Of a DNA stretch of 64,000 bases, positions 4,545 to 56,139 are shown piece after piece. Made by a program: the position numbers and the translations under genes. How positions within the stretch are numbered: the first letter of the stretch is position 1; each line of letters opens with the position of its first letter. The notes under the pieces are model-generated. The model was given only the letters and a program-made list of their open reading frames with translations, made no database searches and was not told where the DNA came from. Origin of the DNA: Clostridiaceae bacterium (GTDB lineage Bacteria; Bacillota; Clostridia; Oscillospirales; Acutalibacteraceae); NCBI GenBank assembly GCA_016295355.1, contig JAEDLK010000005.1:1871-65870 (forward strand), in the 5' to 3' direction.

Positions 4545-5477
4545 TTGAAAAGAATCACAACTCTAACGCTGAATCCCGCCTTTGACTTACACTGTCAATG
4601 TGCGAGTTTTGATGTCGGCCAAGAAAACTATGCCGGTTCGATTTCCCGTTTTTTGGGAGGTAAAGGAATCAATGTGTCCCGTGCCTTGACGGTCAACGGC
4701 ATTAACAATACCGCTGTGGCGGTTTTGGGAGAGGAAAACGCCTCCTCTTTTTTGGAAATGGCCGGAAATGAGCATTTATCGGTGCGCCCGATCCCCGTGC
4801 CCGGGTGTATTCGCGAAAATCTGACCATTCATCAAGCCAACGGCATTGAAACACGATTGAGCTTTGACAGTTTTTCATGTGCGGATACGGTACTTGATGA
4901 AGTTTACCGAATCTTAAAACCGAACGATCGTGCAGTTGTGGTCTTCAGCGGCCGACTCCCCGGCGGCGTTTCTACGCAAAAAACACTGGACTTTTTATCC
5001 CGCATTATGCGCTCGGGAGCTTTTTTGGCGGTAGACAGCAACTCCTTCTCCTTAGAAGATCTCATCACCTTAAAGCCTTCCTTAATCAAGCCAAATGAGG
5101 CAGAGCTGGCCGCCTTCGGGCTACCGGCTGATACCGACGAAGTCTGCCTATCCTCTGCCAAGCGTCTGCACGAAAGCGGTATTGACTATGTTTTAATCAG
5201 CCGTGGCCATAAGGATGGTTGCTTTGCCGGAAAAGACGGCCTTTTCCGCATTCGGCCGGCCGCCATTCGCCCTTTGTCCACCATCGGTGCCGGTGACAGC
5301 ACCATTGCCGGTTTCTTGGCCGGCTTCACAAATGGGCAATCCATACAGGACTGTTTGAAAACAGCCTTCGCCTTCGGCAGTGCGGCCTGCTTAAAGGAAG
5401 GCACACTACCGCCCGATTCGGCTGACATTGCCCGATTGTTTGAACAAACGCAGATTATACCGGTCACCGCCATGTAA
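4545..5477 (+). CDS. 1-phosphofructokinase-family hexose-phosphate kinase (PfkB family)
   Basis: TLNPAFD, GGKGINVS and GAGDS motifs typical of FruK/LacC. TTG start preceded by AAAGGAG. Confidence 0.8.
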   Translation: MKRITTLTLNPAFDLHCQCASFDVGQENYAGSISRFLGGKGINVSRALTVNGINNTAVAVLGEENASSFLEMAGNEHLSVRPIPVPGCIRENLTIHQANGIETRLSFDSFSCADTVLDEVYRILKPNDRAVVVFSGRLPGGVSTQKTLDFLSRIMRSGAFLAVDSNSFSLEDLITLKPSLIKPNEAELAAFGLPADTDEVCLSSAKRLHESGIDYVLISRGHKDGCFAGKDGLFRIRPAAIRPLSTIGAGDSTIAGFLAGFTNGQSIQDCLKTAFAFGSAACLKEGTLPPDSADIARLFEQTQIIPVTAM

Positions 5478-5772
5478 GGCTTTCATTCAATATCTCCAAT
5501 TTTGCGATTTCAAGCCTTAAACGCTCATTTTCGGTAAGAGTTTTGCTTGTATGCCATGCAGCAAAAGGTTTTCCTGGATGTCCTTTAGGATTAAATGCAG
5601 CTTCGCCATATTGACCGTAATCCCTTAACCAATGACAGAGCATACTTCTGTCAGCATGATATTCTTTTTCAAGTATTCGTACAGACATATGTTCGTTCAA
5701 ACGTTTGCCGATGATTTCTCATGTTTGTTCTTTAGTCCATAATCGTCTTTTTTGTCCTTTTTTCATTTTCAT
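5464..5772 (-). pseudogene. IS3-family transposase OrfA remnant (in-frame TGA, no OrfB)
   Basis: MKMKKGQKRRLWTKEQT-TGA(5721..5719)-EIIGKRLNEHMSVRILEKEYHADRSMLCHWLRDYGQYGEAAF...ENERLRLEIAKLE resembles the IS3/IS150 OrfA HTH-leucine zipper. No catalytic ORF follows, and its end overlaps the pfkB stop region. Confidence 0.7.
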
Positions 5773-5803
5773 GCCTCCCCATTATATTGTAGCATAAGAA
5801 AAA

Positions 5804-5843
5804 GGTAGATACATGGTGGTTTTCCATGTGTCTACCTTTTTTT
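5804..5843. terminator. Bidirectional hairpin terminator
   Basis: GGTAGATACATGG-7 nt-CCATGTGTCTACC (13 bp with one G-U). An A-run precedes it and a T-run follows. Confidence 0.6.
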
Positions 5844-5880
5844 ACTATTGCAAGTTCAACGATCGCGTGGTTTTCGTTAT

Positions 5881-5914
5881 ACAATAAACCGACGCCAAAG
5901 AGAATCGGCGTCGG
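5881..5914 (-). terminator. Terminator downstream of the GH16 gene
   Basis: CCGACGCC/GGCGTCGG stem just after the stop at 5931, with TTTATTG following on the minus strand. Confidence 0.55.
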
Positions 5915-5930
5915 CTTGAAAAATGATCAT

Positions 5931-6812
5931 TTATTTCTTTTTGGCGGCCTCGGCTGCTGCAATTTCGTCTCCCAAATGAATTTCCTCCTTATCCGGATTC
6001 TGATACAGGCGAACCCAGTCAATATAGTAATCAATCGGCATATCCTTTTTATCGGTAATGCTCCAACCGTTGACAACCCAACTGCCCTTTGGGGAGAAGA
6101 ACTCATTGTTGAAGATGATGTAGGCAAAATCGTGAAAACCCTGCATGGTCGGCAGCTTCTCGGTGTCAAAGTCATCTTCCTCACGGATGCTGAAACAGGC
6201 ATACTGCTCTCCGTCAACATAGAAGCGAGTTTCTTCCTCGTTCCACTCAAAGGCATAGGTATGGAATTCATTGTTCAGATTCTCATAATCCTTAAACGTG
6301 TATTCCCAGGGAGAAACATTAGCGCTCAAGCTCGAATGTGTGTTATGACCCCACTTGTGCAAGGTACTGCCCAATTTATTAGGGCTGGAAAAAACCTCAA
6401 AAATATCAATCTCGGCCATGTAATCGGCCTTGGCGAACGGCGTGGCACTCTGCATCCAAAAGGACGGCCAAGCACCGAAACGAAACGGCACCTTTCCGTG
6501 CATTTCCAAATAACCGTACTTAAAGTTCATGGTCTTGGTTGTGGTCAAGCCCTCAGGCAGTGTGTATGGGAATTCCGGGTTGTCATCATTCCAAGAGGTG
6601 TGCATATGCAACAAACCGTTTTCAACCCGAACCTGTTCTTCCCCGTTATCATAGATACGATCCTTACCGCTCATGGTACGGTCAAAACACCATTTTGTCC
6701 GATCCAACGTTTCCTTGTCAAATTCGTCATGCCAGACAAGAACCCGTCCTTTTTTTTCGTAAGGGATGCCCATTGCCTCTGCTTCTTGCTTCATATCTTG
6801 TGTTTTCATCAT
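5931..6812 (-). CDS. Glycoside hydrolase family 16 (beta-glucanase/laminarinase-like), no signal peptide
   Basis: Catalytic EIDIFE motif and a WPSFW motif. AAGGAG lies upstream of the ATG ATG pair at 6812/6809. The N-terminus is hydrophilic. Confidence 0.8.
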   Translation of the reverse strand: MMKTQDMKQEAEAMGIPYEKKGRVLVWHDEFDKETLDRTKWCFDRTMSGKDRIYDNGEEQVRVENGLLHMHTSWNDDNPEFPYTLPEGLTTTKTMNFKYGYLEMHGKVPFRFGAWPSFWMQSATPFAKADYMAEIDIFEVFSSPNKLGSTLHKWGHNTHSSLSANVSPWEYTFKDYENLNNEFHTYAFEWNEEETRFYVDGEQYACFSIREEDDFDTEKLPTMQGFHDFAYIIFNNEFFSPKGSWVVNGWSITDKKDMPIDYYIDWVRLYQNPDKEEIHLGDEIAAAEAAKKK

Positions 6813-39551: not shown

Positions 39552-39872
39552 ACAATCCCTCTTCTCATTCTCCTTTAGTATGACAACCACGGGAATGATT
39601 ATGCGAAGAGCAGATGAAATCGGCCGTCTGTCGCCGGCAAAAACAGCGATCTTTATGACAACGATGATCAATATCCGAACAAAAAAAGCGTTGCTACAAG
39701 CCGACTGAATCGTCTTGTGCACTGGCAAATGATTGGTTATTTGACTGTGCTCTAGATTCATGGCCATGGATATAGTCAAATGATCTTTGAAAAATTGTGT
39801 CAAATCTTTGATTTAGGGTCAAACTATCAAAGTTTTTCGTTCTTTCGACTGACCACAACCTCAATCATTGCC

Positions 39873-39901
39873 TTGCATTGCCGCATGCGATATGATACAA
39901 T
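39873..39901 (+). promoter_or_regulatory. Promoter of the cobalamin riboswitch transcript
   Basis: TTGCAT (39873..39878), 17-nt spacer, TACAAT (39896..39901). Confidence 0.6.
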
Positions 39902-39907
39902 AAAAAC

Positions 39908-40110
39908 CGCATCAAGGGAAACGGGTGGGAATCCCGTACGAGCCCGTCGCCGTGTTAAACGCCATATGTTTTTTCTACGCCTCTGCCGCAAGGGGCGGAC
40001 AAGCCATTGGACTGCTTCCGAGAAGGCGAAAAAACAGGTTTTCAGTCGAAATATCTTGGTGCAGAAATCGGTCATACCGCAACTCCTTCAAGTTGCGGAC
40101 ACTGCGAGCG
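39908..40110 (+). ncRNA. Cobalamin (B12) riboswitch
   Basis: AAGGGAAACGGGTGGGAATCCCGTACGAGCCCGTCGCCGTG core and the B12-box-like GCCATTGGACTGCTTCCGAGAAGGCG. A downstream hairpin carries CTCCTT (40083..40088), complementary to the RBS AAGGAG (40135..40140). Confidence 0.8.
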
Positions 40111-44439: not shown

Positions 44440-44650
44440 GTGAATTTGGCGGGTGTAGGTCATCCATCTATCGCCCCGACAAACGAACAATTGAATCAGG
44501 CAAAGCCTTCCCTGTGTAAAGGAAGGTGGATGCGCCGTTAGTCAAAGACGAAAGGGTTTTGCTTGAGTCGAAGGGAATCGAACCCCACACGCCCTACAAA
44601 TGAAATTCTTTCGTTTCCCTGTACTCTATTGCCGGACACACGCCGGTATC

Positions 44651-44858
44651 ATGACTATAGAATATCGAAACGCTACAAAGCGTTTCGATAAAGCCGATTT
44701 TATCGGCTCTTGCCAATTCAAATACGCACTGTTTTGAATTGGCTCTATATTCATGGCAATGGTGTCGACAAATTTTCTTTGAAAATTTGCTGCCAAATCG
44801 AAGATTTGGTGTCGAAATCGTGTGTTTAACCACTATTTCGACTATCTATAACCATTAT
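44651..44858 (+). repeat. Hairpin-rich ~208-nt element, copy A
   Basis: Hand alignment to the reverse complement of 55280..55486 gives about 16 substitutions plus one 1-nt indel. Contains six consecutive hairpins. The termini ATGACTATAGA / TCTATAACCAT are complementary. Confidence 0.8.
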
Positions 44859-45052
44859 GACGCCGCTTCGCCCTTTTTGTATAAGCAAAAATGATCTGTT
44901 TGTAAGGTTGAAAGAAGTTACTCCCAACGGGTTGCCTGTACGGTGCAGCCGTGAATAGGCAACCAGGCTGATGCCTTGCATAAACAATGGAAATGCCGCC
45001 ATTTAATAGGCGGCCGCCAAAACCGACACCTGTTCTATTCTGTCACATGAAC

Positions 45053-45088
45053 CACCTGATGAAAGCTTTTTTCATTGGGTGTTTTTTT
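45053..45088 (+). terminator. Intrinsic terminator (first convincing one downstream of tyrS)
   Basis: CACCTGATGAAA-5 nt-TTTCATTGGGTG (12 bp with two G-U) followed by TTTTTTT. Confidence 0.65.
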
Positions 45089-45142
45089 GCTCCATTCTGC
45101 CCGATGCCACCCCCCTTTCTTCCATACTTTTGAAAAAAAGAC

Positions 45143-45188
45143 TTGACAAACCGGCATAATTGTATTATTTTGATAGTAAACTAATACA
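45143..45188 (+). promoter_or_regulatory. Promoter plus inverted-repeat operator candidate of the ytrA-like operon
   Basis: TTGACA (45143..45148), 17-nt spacer, TATTTT. Inverted repeat TGTATTA (45161..45167) ... TAATACA (45182..45188). Confidence 0.5.
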
Positions 45189-45192
45189 GTTG

Positions 45193-45570
45193 ATGAGAGG
45201 AGTGAATGTATTGGATTGGCATTTAGACAAAAACCGTCCGCTCTGCCCGCAGATTGAAGAACAGCTTTGCGTAAGCATTGCCACAGGAGAAATCAAACCG
45301 TCCGATCGTCTGCCTTCGGTCAGGGAGCTGGCTGTCAGTGCATCGGTCAACCCCAACACCGTGCAAAAGGCACTGGAGTCATTGGAGCAAAAAGGCCTGC
45401 TGTCTTCGGTACGGGGATCGGGCTGGTTTGTCAGTCCGCAGCCACAAAAGGCCAAGGAGATCGTCAATCAGTTAATCCACGCCCGCACAGGCACCTATCT
45501 GGAAGCCATGCGGTTATACGGATGTGATCGGGAAGAAATTATAAGAATTGTTAAGGAGTGGACTCCATGA
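45193..45570 (+). CDS. GntR-family regulator, YtrA subfamily
   Basis: Short (about 120 aa) winged HTH, LPSVRELAVSASVNPNTVQKALESLEQKGLL. Start ambiguous: ATG 45193, GTG 45202 or TTG 45211. Confidence 0.8.
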   Translation: MRGVNVLDWHLDKNRPLCPQIEEQLCVSIATGEIKPSDRLPSVRELAVSASVNPNTVQKALESLEQKGLLSSVRGSGWFVSPQPQKAKEIVNQLIHARTGTYLEAMRLYGCDREEIIRIVKEWTP

Positions 45571-46265
45571 GTGAATTACTGCGCTGTGAAGATTTATGCA
45601 AGTGTTACGGTCATTTGGTCGCTTTGGACCATATCAACCTGACGGTGGAAAGCGGAAAAATCATCGGCCTGTTAGGCCCCAACGGATCGGGAAAAACAAC
45701 CTTGATCAAACTGCTAAACGGTCTTTTAACCCCTTCGGCCGGTCATATCACGGTATGCGGCGATGAACCGGGCGTGCAAACCAAAAAAGCGGTCGCCTAC
45801 CTGCCTGACACGGTGTTCTTGGGCGGCAACATGACCGTGCGCCAGACGGTGAATCTGTTTGATGACTTTTTTGACGATTTTCGTCCGTCATTGGCTTATG
45901 AAATGCTCAACCGCTTGAACATCGACCCGAATGCCCGTCTTAAAACCCTTTCAAAGGGCAACAAGGAGAAGGTTTCCTTAATATTAACCATGAGTCGCAA
46001 CGCCCGTTTATACGTATTGGACGAACCGATCGCCGGCGTTGACCCTGCCACCAGAGATTACATCATCTCCACCATTTTGAATAACTACAATCCGGAGGCA
46101 TCGGTCATTATTTCCACCCATTTGATTGCCGACATCGAGCAAGCCTTGGACGAGGTCATCTTTATCAAAAACGGTCATATTGTCATGCAAAAGTCCGTGG
46201 ATGAGATACGCACAGAGAACAACAAGAGCGTTGACGAGTTGTTCCGGGAGGTATTCAAATGGTAA
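45567..46265 (+). CDS. ABC transporter ATP-binding protein
   Basis: Walker A GPNGSGKTT, signature LSKGNKEK, Walker B LYVLDEP. ATGA overlap with the regulator stop. Confidence 0.9.
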   Translation: MSELLRCEDLCKCYGHLVALDHINLTVESGKIIGLLGPNGSGKTTLIKLLNGLLTPSAGHITVCGDEPGVQTKKAVAYLPDTVFLGGNMTVRQTVNLFDDFFDDFRPSLAYEMLNRLNIDPNARLKTLSKGNKEKVSLILTMSRNARLYVLDEPIAGVDPATRDYIISTILNNYNPEASVIISTHLIADIEQALDEVIFIKNGHIVMQKSVDEIRTENNKSVDELFREVFKW

Positions 46266-47068
46266 AAAAATTATTGAAATACGAGTTTATTTCCTTTGCC
46301 AAGACCATTCTGCCCATGGAAATCATTCTGTTGGGCATTGCCGTGTTGACCCGTTTCATCCAGTTTTTTGAGGATGACAGTGTCACCTATCGCATTTTCA
46401 GCATTTCCTCTGTTGTAGCTTTGGTGATTTCCTGCATCGTTTGTTTGGTGATGACCGTGTTTGTCAATTTGATTCGGTTTTACCGCAACCTGTATACAGG
46501 CGAGGGATATCTGACCCTCACACTGCCGGTCACTCATCATCAGCATATCCTCTCCAAACTGATCGCAGCGGTTTGCTCCACGATTTTCTCCGTCATCTCC
46601 ATTCTTTTGGCCATTGCTATCAGCACAGCCGGCGAGGTCTTTCATGAACTGCTCAAGGCCTTCGGCTATTTATTCGGACTCTTCACCCAAAAGCTCGGTG
46701 CTGACGCCTGGCTGTATGTGTTAGAGTTTCTGATTTTAGCCCTACTCATGACGACAAGCGAATACCTGCTCTGCTACGGCTGTATCACGGTCGGACAGAT
46801 GGCCAAAAAGAACCGTGTGCTGGCCGCCTTCGGCGTCTTTTTCGGCTATTATATGTTTGGTCAAGTGCTCTCGACCGTCCTGCTTGTGATCACCGGTAAC
46901 TTTTATAAGGAACTGCATCTGGATGAATTATTGCGGTGGTTCTCTGAAAATCCCAGACCGGCTGCCCATATCATACTGATTTCCCTGTCGGCGTTTGCGA
47001 TATTGATGGGTTGCATCTACTATCTGATCACCCATAAGTTGATGAAACAAAAACTCAATCTGGAATAA
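46259..47068 (+). CDS. ABC-2-type membrane protein (permease partner)
   Basis: Six hydrophobic segments. Overlaps the ATPase stop. Confidence 0.6.
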   Translation: MVKKLLKYEFISFAKTILPMEIILLGIAVLTRFIQFFEDDSVTYRIFSISSVVALVISCIVCLVMTVFVNLIRFYRNLYTGEGYLTLTLPVTHHQHILSKLIAAVCSTIFSVISILLAIAISTAGEVFHELLKAFGYLFGLFTQKLGADAWLYVLEFLILALLMTTSEYLLCYGCITVGQMAKKNRVLAAFGVFFGYYMFGQVLSTVLLVITGNFYKELHLDELLRWFSENPRPAAHIILISLSAFAILMGCIYYLITHKLMKQKLNLE

Positions 47069-47081
47069 AGGAGTGTTTGCC

Positions 47082-47192
47082 ATGAAAAAAACCATATTGG
47101 TCATCACGGCTGTGGCCACCTTGCTTCTGTTGGCCGTTCGCTTAATCGGCAAACAGCCTAAAACCGACCCCACACAGGAGGATGTGTTATGA
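47082..47192 (+). CDS. 36-aa single-TM peptide MKKTILVITAVATLLLLAVRLIGKQPKTDPTQEDVL
   Basis: AAAGGAG 8 nt upstream. Its stop overlaps the next gene's start (ATGA). Below the ORF-track size cutoff. Confidence 0.45.
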   Translation: MKKTILVITAVATLLLLAVRLIGKQPKTDPTQEDVL

Positions 47193-47890
47193 AGAAAAAC
47201 AAAATTAAAAAACTCATTGCCCTTGCGGGTGCGGTGCTGCTGATGCTACCGCTGACCGGCTGCCGTTCGCTGGATGAAATGCGTTCCAAGCAGGCGTTTT
47301 GGAACGGCGAAGACCGTCAAGCTATTTCCTTTAACGGCAACAGCTACAAAAGACTGGACTCCTGTGCAGATCTTCGTTTACCCACATCGGTCAATACTTG
47401 TTATATCACCGAAACAGATGTGCCGGTGTTATTGAGCCAATCGATGGGCTACCGAGCGTCGGTGTCGACGGATCATCGGTTTATTTCAAACAATGATCAT
47501 ATCTACGCCCGCGAGGATGTTTTTGATACCTTCCAAGCCTTGATTCAAAATCACCCCATGCCCTATTATGCCACTTATGTCATCGAAAAAAACTACGAAG
47601 TCACTGTTCGGGCGCTTGATTCTTCCCTGCAACAGACGTTGCAATCGGCCATAGACGGCATGGTCAAAACCACAGCTTTCACAACCGGTCTGCCGGAAGT
47701 GCCGATCTTTAAGTGCGATGAAACCGGCCTTTTCTACACCGAGGCGTTCTCTCTGTATTTGGATCGAACAACCGCAACCATCTATTTAAGAGATGACGAT
47801 GACATTTACCGTCTGCCCGACGGATCATCCCTGCCGCTATCTGTTTTGTTCAACGATAACGAAAAGTATATCTCAACCGATTCTTACTGA
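47189..47890 (+). CDS. Lipoprotein of unknown function
   Basis: Signal peptide with lipobox LPLTGC. No recognisable domain. Confidence 0.6.
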   Translation: MKKNKIKKLIALAGAVLLMLPLTGCRSLDEMRSKQAFWNGEDRQAISFNGNSYKRLDSCADLRLPTSVNTCYITETDVPVLLSQSMGYRASVSTDHRFISNNDHIYAREDVFDTFQALIQNHPMPYYATYVIEKNYEVTVRALDSSLQQTLQSAIDGMVKTTAFTTGLPEVPIFKCDETGLFYTEAFSLYLDRTTATIYLRDDDDIYRLPDGSSLPLSVLFNDNEKYISTDSY

Positions 47891-47996
47891 AAATGCCCCC
47901 TGTAAACCGTCCTTGCCACTCTTTCTTAAAGGGTCGGCAAGGGCGATTTTGTATGAACGGCTCGTTGCGGTGCATACTACCAACGGAGGCGATTGC

Positions 47997-48626
47997 ATGA
48001 AAAAAGCAGGGTTGATCGGACTTTGTCTGCTTCTATGCCTGTGCGTGTCCCAGCCGGCGGTAGCACTGTCCAAGCGCGGCTCCCGCGGTGAAGAGGTTAC
48101 ACGCATTCAACAGGCTCTTAAACAAAGAGGCTATTACACCGGTGCTGTTGACGGCGTTTACGGGAGCGGTACGCAGGCCGCCGTTACAGCTTTTCAAAGA
48201 GATAACGGTCTGTCTGCCGATGGCATTGCAGGCCATCAAACGCTGACGGCCCTCGGTCTGTCGGCCGGCAACACCGACAGCGATTATCAGTTGTTGGCTC
48301 GTGTCATTTCAGCCGAGGCCCGTGGTGAACCCTATATCGGACAGGTGGCCGTGGGTGCAGTGATTCTCAACCGCATCGAGCATCCTTCCTTTCCCGATTC
48401 TCTGACGGGTGTCATCTTTCAAAACGGCGCCTTTACTTGCATGACCGACGGTCAATTCAGTGTAGAGATTGCAGAAAGCGCCTACAGTGCCGCACGGGAT
48501 GCCCTAAACGGATTAGACCCAACCGGCGGTGCCATTTATTATTACAACCCCGCCACCGCAACCAATCAATGGATTCGTAATCGACCGGTGGTTTACACCG
48601 TCGGTGCTCATGTCTTTTGTCAATAG
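47997..48626 (+). CDS. sleB: Spore cortex-lytic enzyme SleB-like (PG_binding_1 + Hydrolase_2)
   Basis: Signal peptide, PG-binding repeat (VTAFQRDNGLSADGIAGHQT) and ARVISAEARGEPYIGQVAVGAVILNRIEHPSFPDSL. ACGGAGG RBS before the ATG at 47997. Confidence 0.8.
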   Translation: MKKAGLIGLCLLLCLCVSQPAVALSKRGSRGEEVTRIQQALKQRGYYTGAVDGVYGSGTQAAVTAFQRDNGLSADGIAGHQTLTALGLSAGNTDSDYQLLARVISAEARGEPYIGQVAVGAVILNRIEHPSFPDSLTGVIFQNGAFTCMTDGQFSVEIAESAYSAARDALNGLDPTGGAIYYYNPATATNQWIRNRPVVYTVGAHVFCQ

Positions 48627-48712
48627 AAAATCATTACTGCCGGTAAGCCGGCTTTGCTGTGCGGTTGTAAGCTGCTGTTACCGGCAAGGCTCAAAGCTCA
48701 CCGAATGATCTG

Positions 48713-48760
48713 CCAACCGCAAGCGGATTCTTGCTGCCGCTAAAGCGGTTGGTTACTTTT
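48713..48760 (+). terminator. Terminator after sleB
   Basis: CCAACCGC...GCGGTTGG with a nested AGCGG/CCGCT stem, followed by TTACTTTTTG. Confidence 0.5.
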
Positions 48761-49046
48761 TGCTTGCCTTAACTCACTGACCTGTAAACTGTCTATGGGT
48801 TCTTTATACTCCCCTGTTTATACGCTTAGTGGATTGCTTCTGTGTTCTGCTGTTGACTTTTCCCTTCCCACTATATCTCATAAAGATTCTTAACACCAAA
48901 ACGCTCTGTTTCCGGATTGATCTTTTAGATTCGCGTATTTATCAAAGATCCTAAATCCTCTTTTCCTTTTAATATTCCATAGGAGTTCTCTTTTACTCAT
49001 CGACAAAAGTTATCACGTCACCACCCGCTTAGCAAGTGGGTCTTGA

Positions 49047-49085
49047 TACAAACAAAGGCCGTCAAGCCTAATCACGACTTGACGG
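49047..49085 (-). terminator. Terminator after the surface-anchor fragment
   Basis: CCGTCAAG-11 nt-CTTGACGG, with CCTTTGTTTG following on the minus strand. Confidence 0.6.
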
Positions 49086-49096
49086 TCTTTATAGTG

Positions 49097-49459
49097 TTAA
49101 TTGCTAATACTGTTTTTCCTGTTGTGAACCAAGAATCCAACCATACTGGTTCCTGACACAACCAACAATGCTATCCAAAGCCACATCATACTGTAATCAC
49201 CCGTTTGCGGTGCTTTTTGTGAATTAGAACCTCCGCCGTTTTCGGTCTGTGATGCTTTTACCTCAAAATGCGTACTGCACTCGCCGTCATTCAATAAAAC
49301 AGTCAAACTGTGTGTGCCGGCAGAAAGTGTTTTGAGATAATCAGCCTTAAGTGTCACAATCGTGGAACCGGACACAGCCGTATATCGCAGCGACAAAGTA
49401 ACCGAGTTTAATGCTTTTCTGATTACAGACTCGGAAAAAGCCGGTAAACGCAGAAGCAT
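49097..49459 (-). pseudogene. C-terminal fragment of a sortase-anchored surface protein
   Basis: Ends with the sorting signal APQTGD, a hydrophobic helix and the basic tail HNRKNSISN. It has no signal peptide and no N-terminal domains. Confidence 0.5.
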
Positions 49460-49484
49460 CCTTTCAACACGGCCGCTTTACACA

Positions 49485-49955
49485 ATGAGCGAGGAGCTTT
49501 TGAATTCGCTACTCAGTCGGCATCGGATGACAGACGAAGAAAGACAAACGATTTTGGACTTTGCCGCTGCCAAACGAAGAAGAATCGAGACGATACTGGA
49601 AAACAATACCATAGAAGATGAAATATCCGAACTGACAGAGGATGACTTGATCCGCCATCCTCTGCCGCTGGACCTTTCCGGCGCTTTCTGTGAACAGGAT
49701 ATTTTTTATACCTACGAAGAATATCATGAACATTTGAAAAGTACGGAACAATTTACCCAGGCCCATCCAAACTATGCGCTGAAAAGGACCTCATCTCACG
49801 CCTTTCACAATTTGCAGATAATCATTCACGAGGGTAAATGGGCTATGATATCCAAAGGAAAAACGCCGTCCATTCCTTTTGTGGTTTATCATCCAAAGAT
49901 GGTAAATGCCATTGAAACCTTTATTCCTCCTGTGGTGGAGGATAAGGCAGAATAG
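49485..49955 (+). CDS. Hypothetical protein (possibly the C-terminal part of a larger regulator-like protein)
   Basis: ATG at 49485 (MSEELLNSLL...). No recognisable motif. Abuts the opposite-strand fragment. Confidence 0.4.
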   Translation: MSEELLNSLLSRHRMTDEERQTILDFAAAKRRRIETILENNTIEDEISELTEDDLIRHPLPLDLSGAFCEQDIFYTYEEYHEHLKSTEQFTQAHPNYALKRTSSHAFHNLQIIIHEGKWAMISKGKTPSIPFVVYHPKMVNAIETFIPPVVEDKAE

Positions 49956-50135
49956 TATACAGCATGATTCTCATCGCATGATGGTGACCAATCTGTAGCA
50001 AGCGGTCTTAAATATGATCTGCAAAAGCCCCGATGTGTATCAGACAAGATCAACCGAGCCAGGCTGTCGGACAAAGGTTTTCATACATTGGTTAACCTCT
50101 TTTGAACCATGAGACGATTGCGTGGTTTTCGGGAT

Positions 50136-50170
50136 ACAAAAAGGCCGTGCGGTACCGTTGTCCGCACGGC
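50136..50170 (-). terminator. Terminator after the 245-aa membrane protein gene
   Basis: GGCCGTGCGG-9 nt-CCGCACGGC, with CTTTTTGTAT following on the minus strand. Confidence 0.65.
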
Positions 50171-50210
50171 TATATGATGCCTATAGGGCACCGTCAATCG
50201 GTGTCAAGTA

Positions 50211-50948
50211 CTATTCAATCCAGCCTTTATCCTTTAAGGCCTGCAAAAAGATTTCAGCTCTGCGTGTCGCCTCCAGGGCTTCCCCGTTTTTCTCCATCAG
50301 CGTTCCGCCAATGTTTTTAACGGCAATACCGATGTTTTGCGGAGCCGGAAAATCTGACACGACATCAATGGTCTCGTAAAATGCTTTTGTAAAAGGATGA
50401 TAAGCATACAAAAGGCCCGTGTCCGATAGGTCGTTCAAATAGTCCCAAGTATCCGCCGATGTGATAAACAGAGAAGTCTTGGTGTCAACCGCCACCAATG
50501 ACTGGAGCTTTTGCATCTTCACCTGCTGTTGCTCGGCCGTCGAAACCCCCACCTCAAAGGTACAGTTAATGACCTCGACCAACGCCGACCCATTGCCATC
50601 AAAATCGGGGCAGACCGACGAAAGGCTGTCCTGTATGCCGCTGATGTGCATTTCTGAAATATAATGATAATCGAAGGCGGCTATTCTGATATCCTTATTT
50701 GGGTTTTTGGCGCACTGCACACAGAAAAAGGCGGCAAACCCCGCAACAAGCAACAGACCGATAAAGGGAACCCGATAATAATACCACCAATGAGCGATTT
50801 TTTGCACAAAGCCCTGCGGACGAATCTCATCCTGATAGGGCGTATGCTCCACTGTCACACCGGCCTGTTTCGCCTTTTTCAGTTCCATTAAATCCTGTTG
50901 TGCTTTTCGCCTTTGTCGCAGGGTTTCACTTTCCGGTTTATGATCCAT
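50211..50948 (-). CDS. Membrane-anchored protein of unknown function
   Basis: Charged N-terminus, one TM helix (VPFIGLLLVAGFAAFFCVQ) and an extracytoplasmic domain of about 170 aa. Confidence 0.5.
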   Translation of the reverse strand: MDHKPESETLRQRRKAQQDLMELKKAKQAGVTVEHTPYQDEIRPQGFVQKIAHWWYYYRVPFIGLLLVAGFAAFFCVQCAKNPNKDIRIAAFDYHYISEMHISGIQDSLSSVCPDFDGNGSALVEVINCTFEVGVSTAEQQQVKMQKLQSLVAVDTKTSLFITSADTWDYLNDLSDTGLLYAYHPFTKAFYETIDVVSDFPAPQNIGIAVKNIGGTLMEKNGEALEATRRAEIFLQALKDKGWIE

Positions 50949-50959
50949 TTGTTTCTCCT

Positions 50960-51793
50960 TTACAGCTTTTCAAGAAAGGCCTTGAGTACCGATTCAAAAT
51001 TCACGCCGTACCGTCGGTCGGGATTTTCCGAAAGGGTGGCGGAAATACTATCACACACCAAATCAGCCGCCAGTGAAGTACTTTGAGGCAGTGTGTATCC
51101 GGCCAACAAAGCCCCCACCAAGCCACTGCCGAAAACATCGCCCGTGCCGTGATACAGTCCCGGTAAACGATCCTTTAAGATGTAGGAAATATGGCCGTTT
51201 TTAAGTACCGCCGCCCCCAAATGATCATGATCAAACGCCACACCGGTTAAGACCACATCCGCCTTGGTCAGCTCATACAAACGATGAAGCAGCATTTCTA
51301 TCATGGGCTTATCATACGGCGGTTCGCTGTAAGGCAAGCCGGTCATCAAGCAAGCCTCGGTGATATTGGGGACAATGATGTCGGCCTGTTGGCACAGTTC
51401 GAGCATAGCCCCCGGAAAATCCTGTTCAAAGCCGGGGTACAATTTGCCGTCATCGGCCATAGCCGGGTCGGTCACAATCAAAGAATCTTTTGTTCTGATA
51501 AGTGAAACGGCCTTGGCAACCAACGACGCTTGTTCGGGTGAGCCTAAATAGCCGGTATAAAAGGCATCGGCCGTAATGCCTTCCTTTTTCCAATGCTCGG
51601 CTATGGGCAAAATATCCTCAGTCAAATCCCGAAAGGTGTAGCCCGTAAAGCCACCTGTGTGGGTGGAAAGAACCGCTGTGGGAATAACCGCACATTCATG
51701 GCCGCAGGCCGAAAGAATGGGCAACGCAACCGTCAGAGAACATTTCCCGAAACAGGAAATGTCATGAATCGCCACCACTCTTTTTTGTGACAT
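50960..51793 (-). CDS. pdxK: Pyridoxal/pyridoxamine kinase
   Basis: RVVAIHDISCFGKCSLTVALPILSACG N-terminus and a ribokinase-like fold (GTGDVFGS). ATG at 51793 is 8 nt after AGAGG. Confidence 0.8.
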   Translation of the reverse strand: MSQKRVVAIHDISCFGKCSLTVALPILSACGHECAVIPTAVLSTHTGGFTGYTFRDLTEDILPIAEHWKKEGITADAFYTGYLGSPEQASLVAKAVSLIRTKDSLIVTDPAMADDGKLYPGFEQDFPGAMLELCQQADIIVPNITEACLMTGLPYSEPPYDKPMIEMLLHRLYELTKADVVLTGVAFDHDHLGAAVLKNGHISYILKDRLPGLYHGTGDVFGSGLVGALLAGYTLPQSTSLAADLVCDSISATLSENPDRRYGVNFESVLKAFLEKL

Positions 51794-51795
51794 TT

Positions 51796-52422
51796 TCATA
51801 ACCTCTTTTGACAAATTCCATGTAGGCAACAGCTCTCACAATCCGGCTTGCGTGCCGTACAAACGGCACGACCGTGTAATACCACACGGTGACAAAAGGC
51901 GTTAGAGTCCATACCCTTCAACAATGACCGCATTTTTTGCTCCACTTTATACGGATCGGTTGTTTTAACAAACCCCATTCGATTGCATAACCGGATAAAG
52001 TGCGTATCTGTGACCACTGCCGGCTTACCGTAGATATCGCCGCAAACCAAATTGGCCGTTTTCCGCCCGACACCGGGCAATCGAACCAATGCCTCAATCG
52101 TATCCGGCACCTCTCCGCCGAATTCTTCGACCAACATTCGAGCAATCCCACATAAATCCTTGGCCTTGCTGTGGAAAAGCCCACAGGTCATAATATACGG
52201 CTCAATGTCCTGCGGTGTGGCCTTTGCCATAGTATAACAATCGGGATAGTCTGAAAACAGCGCCGGTGTAACCAGATTAACCCGTGCATCGGTACATTGT
52301 GCCGATAATCGGGTGGCAATCAATAGCTGGAAGGGCGTTTGATAGGTTAGCGAACAAACCGCCTGAGGATAGGCCATCTTCAATGCCTCGACAGCGGTTG
52401 CCGCACGCATCTTTTCAGTCAT
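51796..52422 (-). CDS. nth: Endonuclease III
   Basis: HhH-GPD motif (LPGVGRKTANLV) and Fe-S cluster loop CTARKPDCESCCLHGIC. Confidence 0.9.
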   Translation of the reverse strand: MTEKMRAATAVEALKMAYPQAVCSLTYQTPFQLLIATRLSAQCTDARVNLVTPALFSDYPDCYTMAKATPQDIEPYIMTCGLFHSKAKDLCGIARMLVEEFGGEVPDTIEALVRLPGVGRKTANLVCGDIYGKPAVVTDTHFIRLCNRMGFVKTTDPYKVEQKMRSLLKGMDSNAFCHRVVLHGRAVCTARKPDCESCCLHGICQKRL

Positions 52423-53461
52423 CGGTACCCAACTTCATATAGCCCGGGCGAATCATGCCCAGCTTACGCATGGCCTCGCTGATGCCAAGGCATACCACCG
52501 CCGGCAGAACAAACTGCATCACGGCAATCTGCAACAACGCCATACCGGCACTCGTGCCGGCCGCCGTCATGGCCTCAAACGAAGCAAACTGACCTACCAG
52601 TCCGGCACTGCCCATGCCCGAACCGACCGGCGTACTGACCATTTTGAGTACAGCCGAGGAAATCGGTCCTAAAATAGCACTGGAAAGAATGGCCGGTAAC
52701 CAAATCTGCGGGTGTCGCACAATGTTGGGCATTTGCAACATCGAGGTGCCGATCCCCTGCGAAACCAAACCGCCGATCTTGTTTTCCCGATAGCTGATGA
52801 CAGCAAAGCCGACCATATTACAGCAACAACCGATGGTAGCCGCACCTGCCGCCAAACCTGTAATGCCCATGGAAATACCAATGGCAGCCGAAGAAATCGG
52901 CAGAGTCAACAGAATACCCATCAAGGTTGATACAATGATACCGCCGATAATCGGATGTAATGCCACATTATAGTTGACCAAGTTACCGATCCATTTCATA
53001 GCAAAAGAGATGTACGGTCCTACAAAAAAGCCGATCACCGATCCGCTCAACACACAACAAAGCGGTGTAAGAATAATATCCAGCTTGGTTCTGCCGGCCA
53101 CCAACGCACCGATCTCCACCGCCACATAAGCGGCAATAAATGCACCCAACGGTTCGCCGGGAGCACCGAGCTTGAACTGTTCAACCAGTAAATTGGGGAA
53201 AGCACCGACAAAACCGGCCACAGCCGCTGAAACAGAGGTCAGCGTGGACGCCTTCAGCTTACTGGCCACCCCGACACCGATGCCGGCGCCGGTAAGAGTC
53301 TTGGCAAAATTACCGATCACCGTCAGATAAGTACCTACGGTATTAGAGCCGACTAATGCACCGATCTGAACAATAATGGTGCCGATAATCAGCGTTGAGA
53401 ACAACCCCATGGCCATACCGGACAGGCCGTCAATAAACAATCGATTCAAATACTTTTTCAT
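52415..53461 (-). CDS. PTS EIIC_2-family membrane transporter (substrate unknown)
   Basis: Gly/Ala-rich polytopic protein starting MKKYLNRLFIDGLSGMAMGLF. AGGAGGAGG RBS before the ATG at 53461. Family assignment is from memory. Confidence 0.6.
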   Translation of the reverse strand: MKKYLNRLFIDGLSGMAMGLFSTLIIGTIIVQIGALVGSNTVGTYLTVIGNFAKTLTGAGIGVGVASKLKASTLTSVSAAVAGFVGAFPNLLVEQFKLGAPGEPLGAFIAAYVAVEIGALVAGRTKLDIILTPLCCVLSGSVIGFFVGPYISFAMKWIGNLVNYNVALHPIIGGIIVSTLMGILLTLPISSAAIGISMGITGLAAGAATIGCCCNMVGFAVISYRENKIGGLVSQGIGTSMLQMPNIVRHPQIWLPAILSSAILGPISSAVLKMVSTPVGSGMGSAGLVGQFASFEAMTAAGTSAGMALLQIAVMQFVLPAVVCLGISEAMRKLGMIRPGYMKLGTDD

Positions 53462-53598
53462 GTTACCTCCTCCTGCGCTTGCCGAACATCTCGCACGCTT
53501 TTGACGGCCCTGTTTCGGACGTTCATCTCCTAAAACAGCTTTGTGCCGCATCCGCCGAAATATTTTATGTAAAACGCATATCAAAATTTGTTTCGGTC

Positions 53599-53628
53599 AT
53601 TATACTACAGAACAAACAATACTGTCAA
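53599..53628 (-). promoter_or_regulatory. Promoter of the EIIC_2-nth-pdxK operon
   Basis: Minus strand TTGACA (53628..53623), 18-nt spacer, TATAAT (53604..53599). Confidence 0.55.
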
Positions 53629-53663
53629 TTCTTAAGGATAGAATAATGACCTTTTTTCTTTTA

Positions 53664-53710
53664 TAAAACAGCACACAGCAGGGATCATCCCTGCCGTGTT
53701 TTCTTTTTTG
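53664..53710. terminator. Hairpin terminator after the GT4 gene
   Basis: CACAGCAGGG...CCCTGCCGTG stem with U-rich tracts on both strands. Confidence 0.55.
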
Positions 53711-53713
53711 GTT

Positions 53714-55081
53714 TTACGGCCGCCGAATCACATTGTCGAGCTTGTCCTTGGCTTGGTTGCCGATTTTCTGCACACCGGCCTTCCATTCCGCCCCCATCTG
53801 AATGGCACCTGTCTTTAAGGAGTCAAAATGATCCTTACGACGGTTAAAATAATCCATCATAGCAGCGGCCGCATGAAGCATATCATCCGAAAATTGCTCC
53901 CGTTTGGGATAGTGGCCGGCCTGATAGTTGTCAATCACCGTTTCATAGCGAGCAGAGGCTTGCTTTACGGAATCCTCCCAGGACACATATAAGTCATATT
54001 GAGCCGACTCGCCCACCTGTCGAACGGTTTGAAGACAATGGCACAGCTTTGTCAGCATGGCGGCCATGCTGTCGGCGTTTTCCTCAATCAAAAAGCCGTT
54101 GACACCGTCACTGACATCCTCTGCGGCACAGCTGCCTTTAATCAGCACGCTGGGCAGGGCACAAGCGGCAGCCTCACGCACCACCAGCCCGTTGGTATCA
54201 AAGGTGGACGGGAACAAAAACAAGTCTGCACGACAATACCAAGCCCGCAGCACTTCCCTATCGTGAATGGCCGGAGAAAAAAACACCTTGTCATCCAAGC
54301 AAAGCGACCGGGCATAGGCCTTGATTGCATCCTTGTCGGTGCCTTTTCCAATGAACACCATGCGAAAATCAGCACCGTCAGCCTTCAGACGACGCAAGGC
54401 ATCCAACATCAGACGAATGCCCTTATACCACATCATACGACCGACAAACAAAAAGACCGGTACTCCTTTGGGTAAATCAAAACCTTTGGTCGCCTGACAA
54501 ATTTGCTCGTCGTTCACTCGTCCTTTTGGCAAATCCACACCGTTGGGCACAACCACATAACGTCCCTCGTATCCGAGTTTTCGCAGGTTATCCCCTGCCC
54601 CGTTACTGACCGTCCAAACCTCATCGCAGGCCGAAATGTTACTAACCAACAGCTTAAGGGCAATATCCTGTAATTGCTTATTTTTAACAGCGTTGGCAAT
54701 ATCAATATCAAATTTGGTATGATAGGTCAACACCAGCGGTGCCTTAATGCGGTCACGCAACGTGCGTGCCAGCATGGTGGAGGTAATGGGACAATGGCTA
54801 TGAATAATATTAAAATGAGAGGACTGCAACCGGCGCATAACCGATGCCGAAAACGGCATACCGGCACGATACCCTACCAACCGCGTCATGTCCACACTGG
54901 GATACCGAATCACCGGAAACGGCCAGACAGAGTCATCCGTATTGGGATAATACGGGGTTACCACCGATGCTTTGCCGCCGTTTGATGAAATAATTTCTGC
55001 ATAATTCTTCACCGCATTGGACACACCGTCAATCAGCGGCGGAAAGGAATCATTTACAAGACAGACATTCAATGCTCTCAT
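53714..55081 (-). CDS. GT4-family glycosyltransferase (glycolipid-synthase-like) with a C-terminal extension
   Basis: N-terminal NDSFPPLIDGVSNAV, EX7E-region LFLFPSTFDTNGLVVREAAACALP. 455 aa. Confidence 0.8.
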   Translation of the reverse strand: MRALNVCLVNDSFPPLIDGVSNAVKNYAEIISSNGGKASVVTPYYPNTDDSVWPFPVIRYPSVDMTRLVGYRAGMPFSASVMRRLQSSHFNIIHSHCPITSTMLARTLRDRIKAPLVLTYHTKFDIDIANAVKNKQLQDIALKLLVSNISACDEVWTVSNGAGDNLRKLGYEGRYVVVPNGVDLPKGRVNDEQICQATKGFDLPKGVPVFLFVGRMMWYKGIRLMLDALRRLKADGADFRMVFIGKGTDKDAIKAYARSLCLDDKVFFSPAIHDREVLRAWYCRADLFLFPSTFDTNGLVVREAAACALPSVLIKGSCAAEDVSDGVNGFLIEENADSMAAMLTKLCHCLQTVRQVGESAQYDLYVSWEDSVKQASARYETVIDNYQAGHYPKREQFSDDMLHAAAAMMDYFNRRKDHFDSLKTGAIQMGAEWKAGVQKIGNQAKDKLDNVIRRP

Positions 55082-55117
55082 TACCTCACCGTCCTTTCAA
55101 GGAGAGTTTTTTATATT

Positions 55118-55146
55118 AGTATACCAAAAAAAGCGGTTTGTTGCAA
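55118..55146 (-). promoter_or_regulatory. Promoter of the GT4 gene
   Basis: Minus strand TTGCAA (55146..55141), 17-nt spacer, TATACT (55123..55118). Confidence 0.5.
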
Positions 55147-55171
55147 GCGGTTTTGAGCAACCAACAAACCG
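55125..55171 (-). terminator. Terminator of the AbrB-like/ABC operon
   Basis: Minus strand CGGTTTGTTG-18 nt-CAACAAACCG followed by CTTTTTTTGG. Confidence 0.6.
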
Positions 55172-55227
55172 ACACAGATGATGGATTTTGGGAATAAGGA
55201 TCTGTTGTTCTTGCACAAATCCAAGAT

Positions 55228-55265
55228 AGAATCTCCCCGTCGGCAACGGCCGACGGGGAGATTCT
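55228..55265. other. Perfect 17-bp hairpin flanking repeat copy B
   Basis: AGAATCTCCCCGTCGGC-AACG-GCCGACGGGGAGATTCT. No adjacent U-tract. Confidence 0.8.
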
Positions 55266-55279
55266 ACACCTATTTCCTT

Positions 55280-55486
55280 ATAATGGTTATAGATAGTCGA
55301 AATAGTGGTTAAATACACGATTTCGACACCAAATCTTCGATTTGGTAGAAAATTTTCAAAGAAAATTTGTCGATACCATGGCCATGAATATAGAGCAAAT
55401 TCAAAAACTTGCGTATTCGAATTTGCAAAAGCCGATAAAATCGGCTTATCGAAACGCTTTCCAGCGTTTGGATATTCTATAGTCAT
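55280..55486 (-). repeat. Hairpin-rich ~208-nt element, copy B (inverted relative to copy A)
   Basis: Its reverse complement aligns end to end with 44651..44858. On the minus strand it starts at the last base of the permease stop codon. Confidence 0.8.
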
Positions 55487-56139
55487 TATAAATCCAACTG
55501 TTCAAAACGTTTAACGCAAAAGCGATAGGACAAAAGTGTGGTTGTGACAAAGAACACAAGACCGAACGCAAAAACAGCCAGTTGTACGTCCATATCGGTA
55601 AAACCGGTTGCATTAAGCCCGGCACATCCCGGTAAATAGTGTAGGCTTTCTCCCACAAGGACGGCAATAAAGGCGAACACGATAAAGCGAATAAACGCTC
55701 CTGCAAATCGGTAGGCCGTGCGGAAGAAACCACACAAAAAGCAGGCCTGGAAAAGGCCAAACACAATCAGTGCAAAACCTAAGAACACAAAGTTTGCGTT
55801 CATCAGTGCATTGCCGACATATGGGCCGGCATCACACAGAAAAATCATGCGAATCAGCGTGATCATCGCCATCAGCAAAAAGGCCACCAGCTCAATGGTC
55901 ACCGTAAAGACAAATTTGGCCAACACCACATCCCGTTTTTTAACCGGCAACAAAGCCGTGTACAGGATGTCGTTGTTTTCCCGCCCCTGCTGAAAGCTCT
56001 GGAAAATACCCATGCAAACAAAGAAAGCCCCTATTAAGATCGGATAGCCCGGGAAAAAGGTCAACAGCGAAAAAGCAATAAACAAAAACGAAAGCACCGA
56101 TGCCGTTAGTCGACATTCTTTTTTCAATAATTTAAGCAT
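55486..56139 (-). CDS. ABC-2-type transporter permease
   Basis: Six TM segments. The ATG at 56139 overlaps the ATPase stop (ATGCTTAA). Confidence 0.7.
   Translation of the reverse strand: MLKLLKKECRLTASVLSFLFIAFSLLTFFPGYPILIGAFFVCMGIFQSFQQGRENNDILYTALLPVKKRDVVLAKFVFTVTIELVAFLLMAMITLIRMIFLCDAGPYVGNALMNANFVFLGFALIVFGLFQACFLCGFFRTAYRFAGAFIRFIVFAFIAVLVGESLHYLPGCAGLNATGFTDMDVQLAVFAFGLVFFVTTTLLSYRFCVKRFEQLDL

Follow-up and report, generated by a model that had tools for sequence, protein, structure and literature searches.

This locus raises the question of whether a hairpin-rich sequence of ~208 bp, which recurs within the window (the whole stretch of DNA that was analysed, 64 kb in length), is a structured RNA, a mobile element or a coding sequence. 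It is probably a non-coding, non-autonomous, MITE-like mobile repeat, which is inserted between genes in several Clostridia-type genomes. Apparently a previously uncatalogued repeat, it is akin to bcr1, BOX/RUP, Correia and ERIC, and it is unlikely to represent a new RNA class or a new kind of genetic system. Three copies lie in the window:

44647..44859, + strand: copy A with its TATC and TATG flanks (alignment, fold)
44651-44855, + strand: core of copy A, ATGAC...AACCAT
44647-44650 and 44856-44859: TATC flank and TATG flank of copy A, respectively
55279..55490, - strand: copy B with TATA on both sides (alignment, fold)
~39656-39866, + strand: copy C, old and decayed, between a divergent GerA gene and a cobalamin riboswitch

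The sequence 44651-44859 on the plus strand can be aligned end to end with 55279-55486 on the minus strand at 92.3% identity over 208 columns, and one of the 16 differences is a 1-nt indel, in agreement with the first-pass annotation, which had described near-identical inverted copies with about 16 substitutions and a 1-nt indel. Copy C, which had been missed at that stage, was located via a 30-nt inverted match; it shares 58-67% identity with the other copies, and its fold energy is only -46.6 kcal/mol. Directly downstream of copy C, a cobalamin riboswitch (RF00174, 38.7 bits, 39868-40076 on the plus strand) is followed by a small lipoprotein-like ORF and then by a membrane protein.

A metagenome pattern scan and exact-protein look-ups gave the DNA of copies outside the window. 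In total, 14 distinct full-length copies have been found in differing gene neighbourhoods, three in the 64-kb window (winA, winB and winC) and 11 elsewhere, on metagenome contigs of 31-43% GC (L008, L009, L010, L011, which equals L014, L012, L015, which equals L016, L017, L018, which equals L019, L020, L021 and L022). Pairwise identity among the 14 copies ranges from 58% to 95% and the GC content of the loci or contigs carrying them from 31% to 49%, indicating that several host species carry the repeat family.

The ends of the element are the same and sharp in every copy, and they form an imperfect terminal inverted repeat of 25 nt with 19 of 25 positions matching (TATAATGACTATAGAATGTCGAAAC versus TATAATGGTTATAGTTAGTCGAAAT), which is found in all of the 13 intact copies. 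In copy A, the repeats are located as follows:

44647..44671, + strand: left terminal inverted repeat, family consensus TATAATGACTATAGAATGTCGAAAC
44835..44859, + strand: right terminal inverted repeat, reverse complement of family consensus TATAATGGTTATAGTTAGTCGAAAT

The terminal complementarity at 9 of 11 positions noticed earlier is thus real, and it grows to 19/25 with inclusion of the TATA flank and of the TCGAAA arm. TATA on both sides is constant in 12-13 of the 13 intact copies. T prevails at position -5 and A at position +5, with no conservation further out, which suggests a TTATAA-like target sequence in AT-rich intergenic DNA. Two copies (winB and L022) are inserted on stop codons and three (L009, L011 and L015) shortly upstream of ribosome-binding sites, as would be expected from a target that contains TAA and resembles TATAAT. 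The flanking TATA could be part of the inverted repeat in place of a duplication; we infer mobility and the size of the target duplication from sequence.

A transposase encoded elsewhere would move such an element in trans by recognising the terminal repeats, and would duplicate TA or TATA at insertion. The earlier remark that no transposase-type gene stands beside copy A or B holds for the ORF lists and Pfam results, and neither a transposase gene nor extra terminal-repeat matches were detected in the window or in 17 loci. A protein of 423 aa with repeated helix-turn-helix modules (HTH_23, HTH_28, sigma-70 region 4-like and ISL3-transposase-type HTH) is encoded at 5246-6517 on the minus strand of L011, ~1.1 kb from the element copy. 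It was considered as a transposase and rejected, as neither a DDE or other catalytic domain in it nor element-type terminal repeats around it were detected. No match to the element was found in plasmid, phage and viral collections, and the conserved sequence strings gave one irrelevant match only in the searchable literature.

Between its ends the element is a chain of six hairpins around a central junction, located in copy A as follows:

44664..44689, + strand: H1, 11 bp; one covarying pair (G-C in 8 copies, A-U in 4)
44692..44708, + strand: H2, 7 bp, loop TTT; one covarying pair (G-C in 7 copies, A-U in 5)
44712..44743, + strand: H3, 11 bp, variable loop; five covarying pairs, sequence free and pairing kept
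44743..44763, + strand: central junction CTCTATATTCATGGCAATGGT
44769..44789, + strand: H4, 9 bp, loop TTT; near-invariant sequence, two covarying pairs
44793..44809, + strand: H5, 7-8 bp; near-invariant sequence
44811..44842, + strand: H6, 8+3 bp, variable loop; four covarying pairs

All six hairpins, as proposed earlier, are present in the minimum-free-energy folds of copies A and B. These folds reach -78 kcal/mol (copy A) and -68.5 kcal/mol (copy B) versus about -37 kcal/mol for shuffled sequences (z = -10.3 and -8.1, respectively), and none of 200 dinucleotide shuffles equals them. The central junction CTCTATATTCATGGCAATGGT, which is complementary to the two termini, is the part best conserved in the decayed copy C. 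Between copies A and B, the compensatory change of a C-G pair to A-T in H3 and the change of an A-T pair to G-T were reproduced, as was the disruption of pairs in H1 and at the H4 base. Close relatives among the copies differ mainly in the loops.

Whether the pairing is maintained across the family was assessed in an alignment of the 14 copies with 72 pairs, which comprise the six hairpins, a small central hairpin and the terminal helix. The bases are able to pair in 93.5% of the cells. As many as 14 of the 72 pairs are changed on both sides; column shuffles give 6.3 +/- 1.7, with none of 500 reaching 14, and slid controls give 4-9, so that the pairing-preserving substitutions first seen between two copies are strengthened at the family level. 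The double changes are found in H3 (five), H6 (four), H4 (two), H1, H2 and the terminal helix (one each). Column entropy is 0.27 in stems versus 0.71 at unpaired positions (p = 5e-8). Both sequence and pairing are conserved in H2, H4 and H5, and pairing only in H3. The long-range helices GAATAT/ATATTC and AATGGT/ACCATT, which had been supposed to close H1-H3 and H4-H6, have only two covarying pairs, both of which come from one set of three related copies, and show no more covariation than the controls. They compete with the pairing of the two terminal repeats. The helix between the terminal repeats is not clearly preferred.

A variant of copy B has been found in a sample that has exactly the permease protein of the copy-B locus. 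Its positions 1218-1285 (L007) correspond to 55419-55486 of the window and have another H1, ATCCAAACGCT/AGCGTTTGGAT, in which a second change mends a C-C mismatch of copy B in the window. Its H3 starts with GCCAATTC, as in copy A. These differences could be due to strain-level compensatory change or to gene conversion between copies.

The element, 206-211 bp in length, is non-coding. The reading as a mini-gene for a protein, or as an in-frame inserted domain similar to the Rickettsia palindromic elements, has something in its favour at the locus of copy B, where an ATG overlaps the stop codon of the permease gene (TAATG) and opens an ORF through the element, which could be read as the start of a protein of 129 aa translationally coupled to the permease gene. 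When the translation of this ORF was used for a search in a protein collection, 18 'proteins' with a stretch of 69 aa in common were obtained. They match only from MTIEY (ATGACTATAGAATAT) to YNHY (TATAACCATTAT), however, and the homology ends exactly at the borders of the element, outside which their flanks are unrelated; they are ORF predictions that run across further copies of the element. In addition, the copies found by DNA pattern (winA, winC and L009-L012) have stop codons or frameshifts in all six frames, a Pfam search of the element gave no match, and a profile search of 1.84 billion representative proteins returned only 80 short entries (38-172 aa) matching differing parts of the element, as spurious ORFs on a non-coding repeat would do. 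The coding reading is effectively refuted. The earlier argument against coding, that the indel shifts every long ORF across the element, led to the right outcome, and stronger evidence is the closure of six frames in copies found independently of any ORF prediction.

Copy A is located 211 nt past the stop codon of the tyrosyl-tRNA synthetase gene (44439) and 193 nt before a terminator-like hairpin (45053-45081). The first bases of copy B overlap the TAA stop codon of an ABC-2 permease gene (55486-56139, minus strand), and 11 nt after copy B there is a GC-rich terminator-like hairpin of 19 bp (55267-55226, minus strand). Consensus scans detected no intrinsic terminator or sigma-70 promoter within the element. 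If those terminators are used, we infer that copies A and B are transcribed in 3' untranslated regions.

It might be asked whether a functional structured RNA is the better description, as a 3'-UTR or cis element or as an independent small RNA, with the hairpins selected as RNA on the ATGAC...CCAT strand and dispersal secondary. The strong covariation in H1, H2, H3, H4 and H6 would be explained by such an RNA, and copies A and B are both in sense orientation between a stop codon and a terminator-like hairpin. On the same strand, G-U exceeds A-C among the non-Watson-Crick cells (15 versus 4, p = 0.02), hinting that one strand matters more than the other. However, this excess falls to 10 versus 3 when independent positions are counted (p = 0.09) and is reversed in the decayed copy C (2 versus 10), and it would be as compatible with a single-stranded DNA intermediate as with RNA. 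The reverse strand folds equally well in every copy: all 13 intact copies have fold energies of -68 to -87 kcal/mol, about equal on either strand, with -81.3 and -68.2 kcal/mol on the opposite strand of copies A and B, z values of -7 to -12 over both strands of these two copies and z = -10.8 for a single-stranded DNA fold. The G-U excess weakly supports the strand asymmetry reported earlier. The stems are near-perfect Watson-Crick palindromes with few wobbles or bulges, which are more typical of DNA palindromes. Where the neighbouring genes run in one direction, five of the seven informative copies are co-oriented with both neighbours (winA, winB, L008, L017 and L022), a split that is not significant (p = 0.45), while L012 and L018 are antisense to both neighbours and yet intact and folded as well as the others. 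Three copies (winC, L011 and L015) are upstream of genes in divergent promoter regions. The rule that the element follows the direction of the upstream gene, drawn from copies A and B, therefore fails across the family. Since both strands fold equally and some copies are antisense to or upstream of genes, a dedicated 3'-UTR function cannot be what keeps the fold family-wide; what remains is a constraint from the element's own propagation or a mutational process on palindromes. In perfect DNA palindromes, compensatory-looking changes can arise from replication template switching without selection. Rfam contains no match to the element at gathering score, the best one being RF02634 in permissive mode (15.4 bits versus a gathering score of 100, E = 0.3-0.7). 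The sharp ends, the inverted repeats and the constant TATA flanks are those of a transposon, and a functional RNA as the primary identity of the element is unlikely. Of the readings offered in the first-pass annotation, the mobile element is upheld by 14 insertions, sharp ends, inverted repeats, TATA flanks and mixed orientation, and the dedicated 3'-UTR RNA is not.

Mobilisation as single-stranded DNA by a Y1/HUH-type transposase, in the manner of IS200/IS605-derived PATEs or of REP/RAYT, would make the hairpins recognition structures on one strand. A single-strand intermediate predicts hairpins that covary and, on one strand, tolerate G-T; the subterminal hairpins H1 and H6 have the stem TCGAAA/TTTCGA in common, and the constant short left flank (T)TATA resembles the target motifs of IS200/IS605. 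Members of the IS200/IS605 family have asymmetric ends with subterminal hairpins on the same strand and no terminal inverted repeats, and PATEs have neither inverted repeats nor duplications. The element resembles PATEs in being short and non-autonomous, in its subterminal hairpins and in its left-flank motif, but it differs from them in that its terminal inverted repeats are genuine and TATA recurs on either side of it, as a duplication would produce. A true inverted repeat outside the hairpins, in a symmetrical layout, is formed by the outermost 13 nt (ATGryTATAGAww), a REP-type GTAG or CGTC tag is absent, and the window and the examined loci yielded no Y1 transposase, TnpB or IscB. The earlier suggestion of an IS200/IS605-PATE relationship is therefore a poor fit, and movement of this kind is quite improbable. 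Classical terminal-repeat MITEs are not known to need six internal hairpins, and the conservation of structure only in H3 points to a function of single-stranded nucleic acid by a mechanism outside the MITE model. The hairpin array could be the functional core and not mere ballast of an ordinary cut-and-paste MITE, as a recognition structure for a single-strand (DNA- or RNA-guided) mobilisation system of gut Clostridia or as a domesticated, widespread RNA module for mRNA stabilisation or processing by the hosts. This idea, which is kept alive by the structure-only conservation of H3, the weak G-U excess on one strand and the fold across hosts of 31-49% GC, is rather unlikely. For the MITE-like repeat preferred here, the hairpins would be needed for propagation of copies, perhaps as single-stranded DNA, as a cruciform or as palindromes that bind a protein, and only hairpin-keeping lineages would have given rise to new copies. 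A copy inside a transcription unit would furnish the RNA with a very stable multi-hairpin block, which may alter mRNA decay or processing as a side effect and not as the purpose of the element.

MITEs are small (about 50-500 bp) and non-coding, and the small non-coding size, the terminal inverted repeats and the multiple dispersed copies all make the present element MITE-like. The Correia (NEMIS) elements of Neisseria and the ERIC/IRU elements of enterobacteria, both in Proteobacteria, are MITEs with terminal inverted repeats, which insert at TA, have TATA-like ends and form one long hairpin by their terminal repeats. They are often co-transcribed with neighbouring genes, and their hairpins affect mRNA processing. 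The element is like them in being MITE-like with terminal inverted repeats, whereas in its fold six local hairpins, each independent of the others, predominate. Its nearest analogue is bcr1, which is also small, non-coding, dispersed and intergenic in Firmicutes, with a fold maintained by compensatory changes. In the Bacillus cereus group, bcr1 is ~155 bp in length, is flanked by 5-bp AT-rich direct repeats at positions that are not conserved, and has a multi-stem cruciform-like predicted fold kept by compensatory changes, with no known transposase partner (PMC3184786). The present element differs in its 208 bp, in six hairpins instead of two, in its 25-nt terminal inverted repeats and TATA flanks, and in its hosts with anaerobic Clostridia-type genomes; the two presumably have no sequence similarity. 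BOX and RUP are short structured intergenic repeats of pneumococci, which are stable as RNA and presumably mobilised in trans, and in RUP the terminal inverted repeats and target duplications are of the classic kind (PMC3184786). Unlike BOX, which is composed of modules (boxA-B-C) and varies in length, the present element is a fixed unit, and it has neither a sequence relation to BOX or RUP nor a known candidate partner IS. It would thus be a Clostridial addition to the few bacterial repeats, such as bcr1, BOX and Correia, that have a multi-hairpin fold maintained by compensatory changes.

The host looks like a member of a sparsely sampled lineage, given that the ABC-2 permease beside copy B has only one relative of more than 59% identity among 5.8 billion clustered proteins. 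That relative, probably from the same species, is 99% identical and is encoded on a 1.5-kb contig. Species-representative genomes, when scanned with a 21-nt core common to the three window copies, gave only five chance-level matches, which show no similarity outside the 21-mer, and the host species appears to be absent from this collection. The tyrosyl-tRNA synthetase, the permease in its 226-aa form, P0001 and P0004 had no record in exact-protein look-ups. A search for empty sites via homologues of the copy-B permease provided no usable orthologous locus, as the next homologue after the 99% one is only 59% identical. Two Logan contigs with the exact permease of the copy-B locus stop after 47 and 68 nt of the element, which is what a repeat is expected to do to an assembly. 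Short-read assemblies are broken by the repeat in this way, and gene callers turn it into dozens of bogus small 'proteins', so that its recognition removes false genes from Clostridia and metagenomes. Its insertion puts very stable hairpins into 3' and 5' untranslated regions, by which mRNA decay or translation could be changed.

Copies A and B (44647-55490) are also inverted repeats 10.4 kb apart, and homologous recombination between them could invert the housekeeping-type segment in between. This interval encodes a GntR regulator, an ABC transporter, a glycosyltransferase and other ordinary housekeeping-type products, including what we take, from reading of the ORFs, to be SleB-like, Nth-like and kinase-like proteins. 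A composite transposon or an invertible segment bounded by the two copies was set aside, as the interval contains no recombinase.

The spacer between the tyrosyl-tRNA synthetase and GntR genes, in which copy A is located, is unusually long (~720 nt). At 44479-44578 on the plus strand, 72 nt upstream of copy A, there is a sub-threshold match to Clostridiales-2 RNA (RF02937; 21.1 bits versus a gathering score of 58.6, E = 0.025), which covers the full model and includes the conserved AAGGAGGGUG-like and GUCGAAGGGAA stretches. The 3' end of this match (GTCGAAGGGAATCGAACCCC) was considered as the reverse complement of a tRNA T-arm and rejected, as ARAGORN finds no tRNA. On the other side of copy A, ~190 nt of non-coding sequence (44860-45081, plus strand) extend to a 13-bp terminator-like hairpin with a T-run (45053-45081). 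The spacer may hold a small RNA gene, next to which the element has been inserted.
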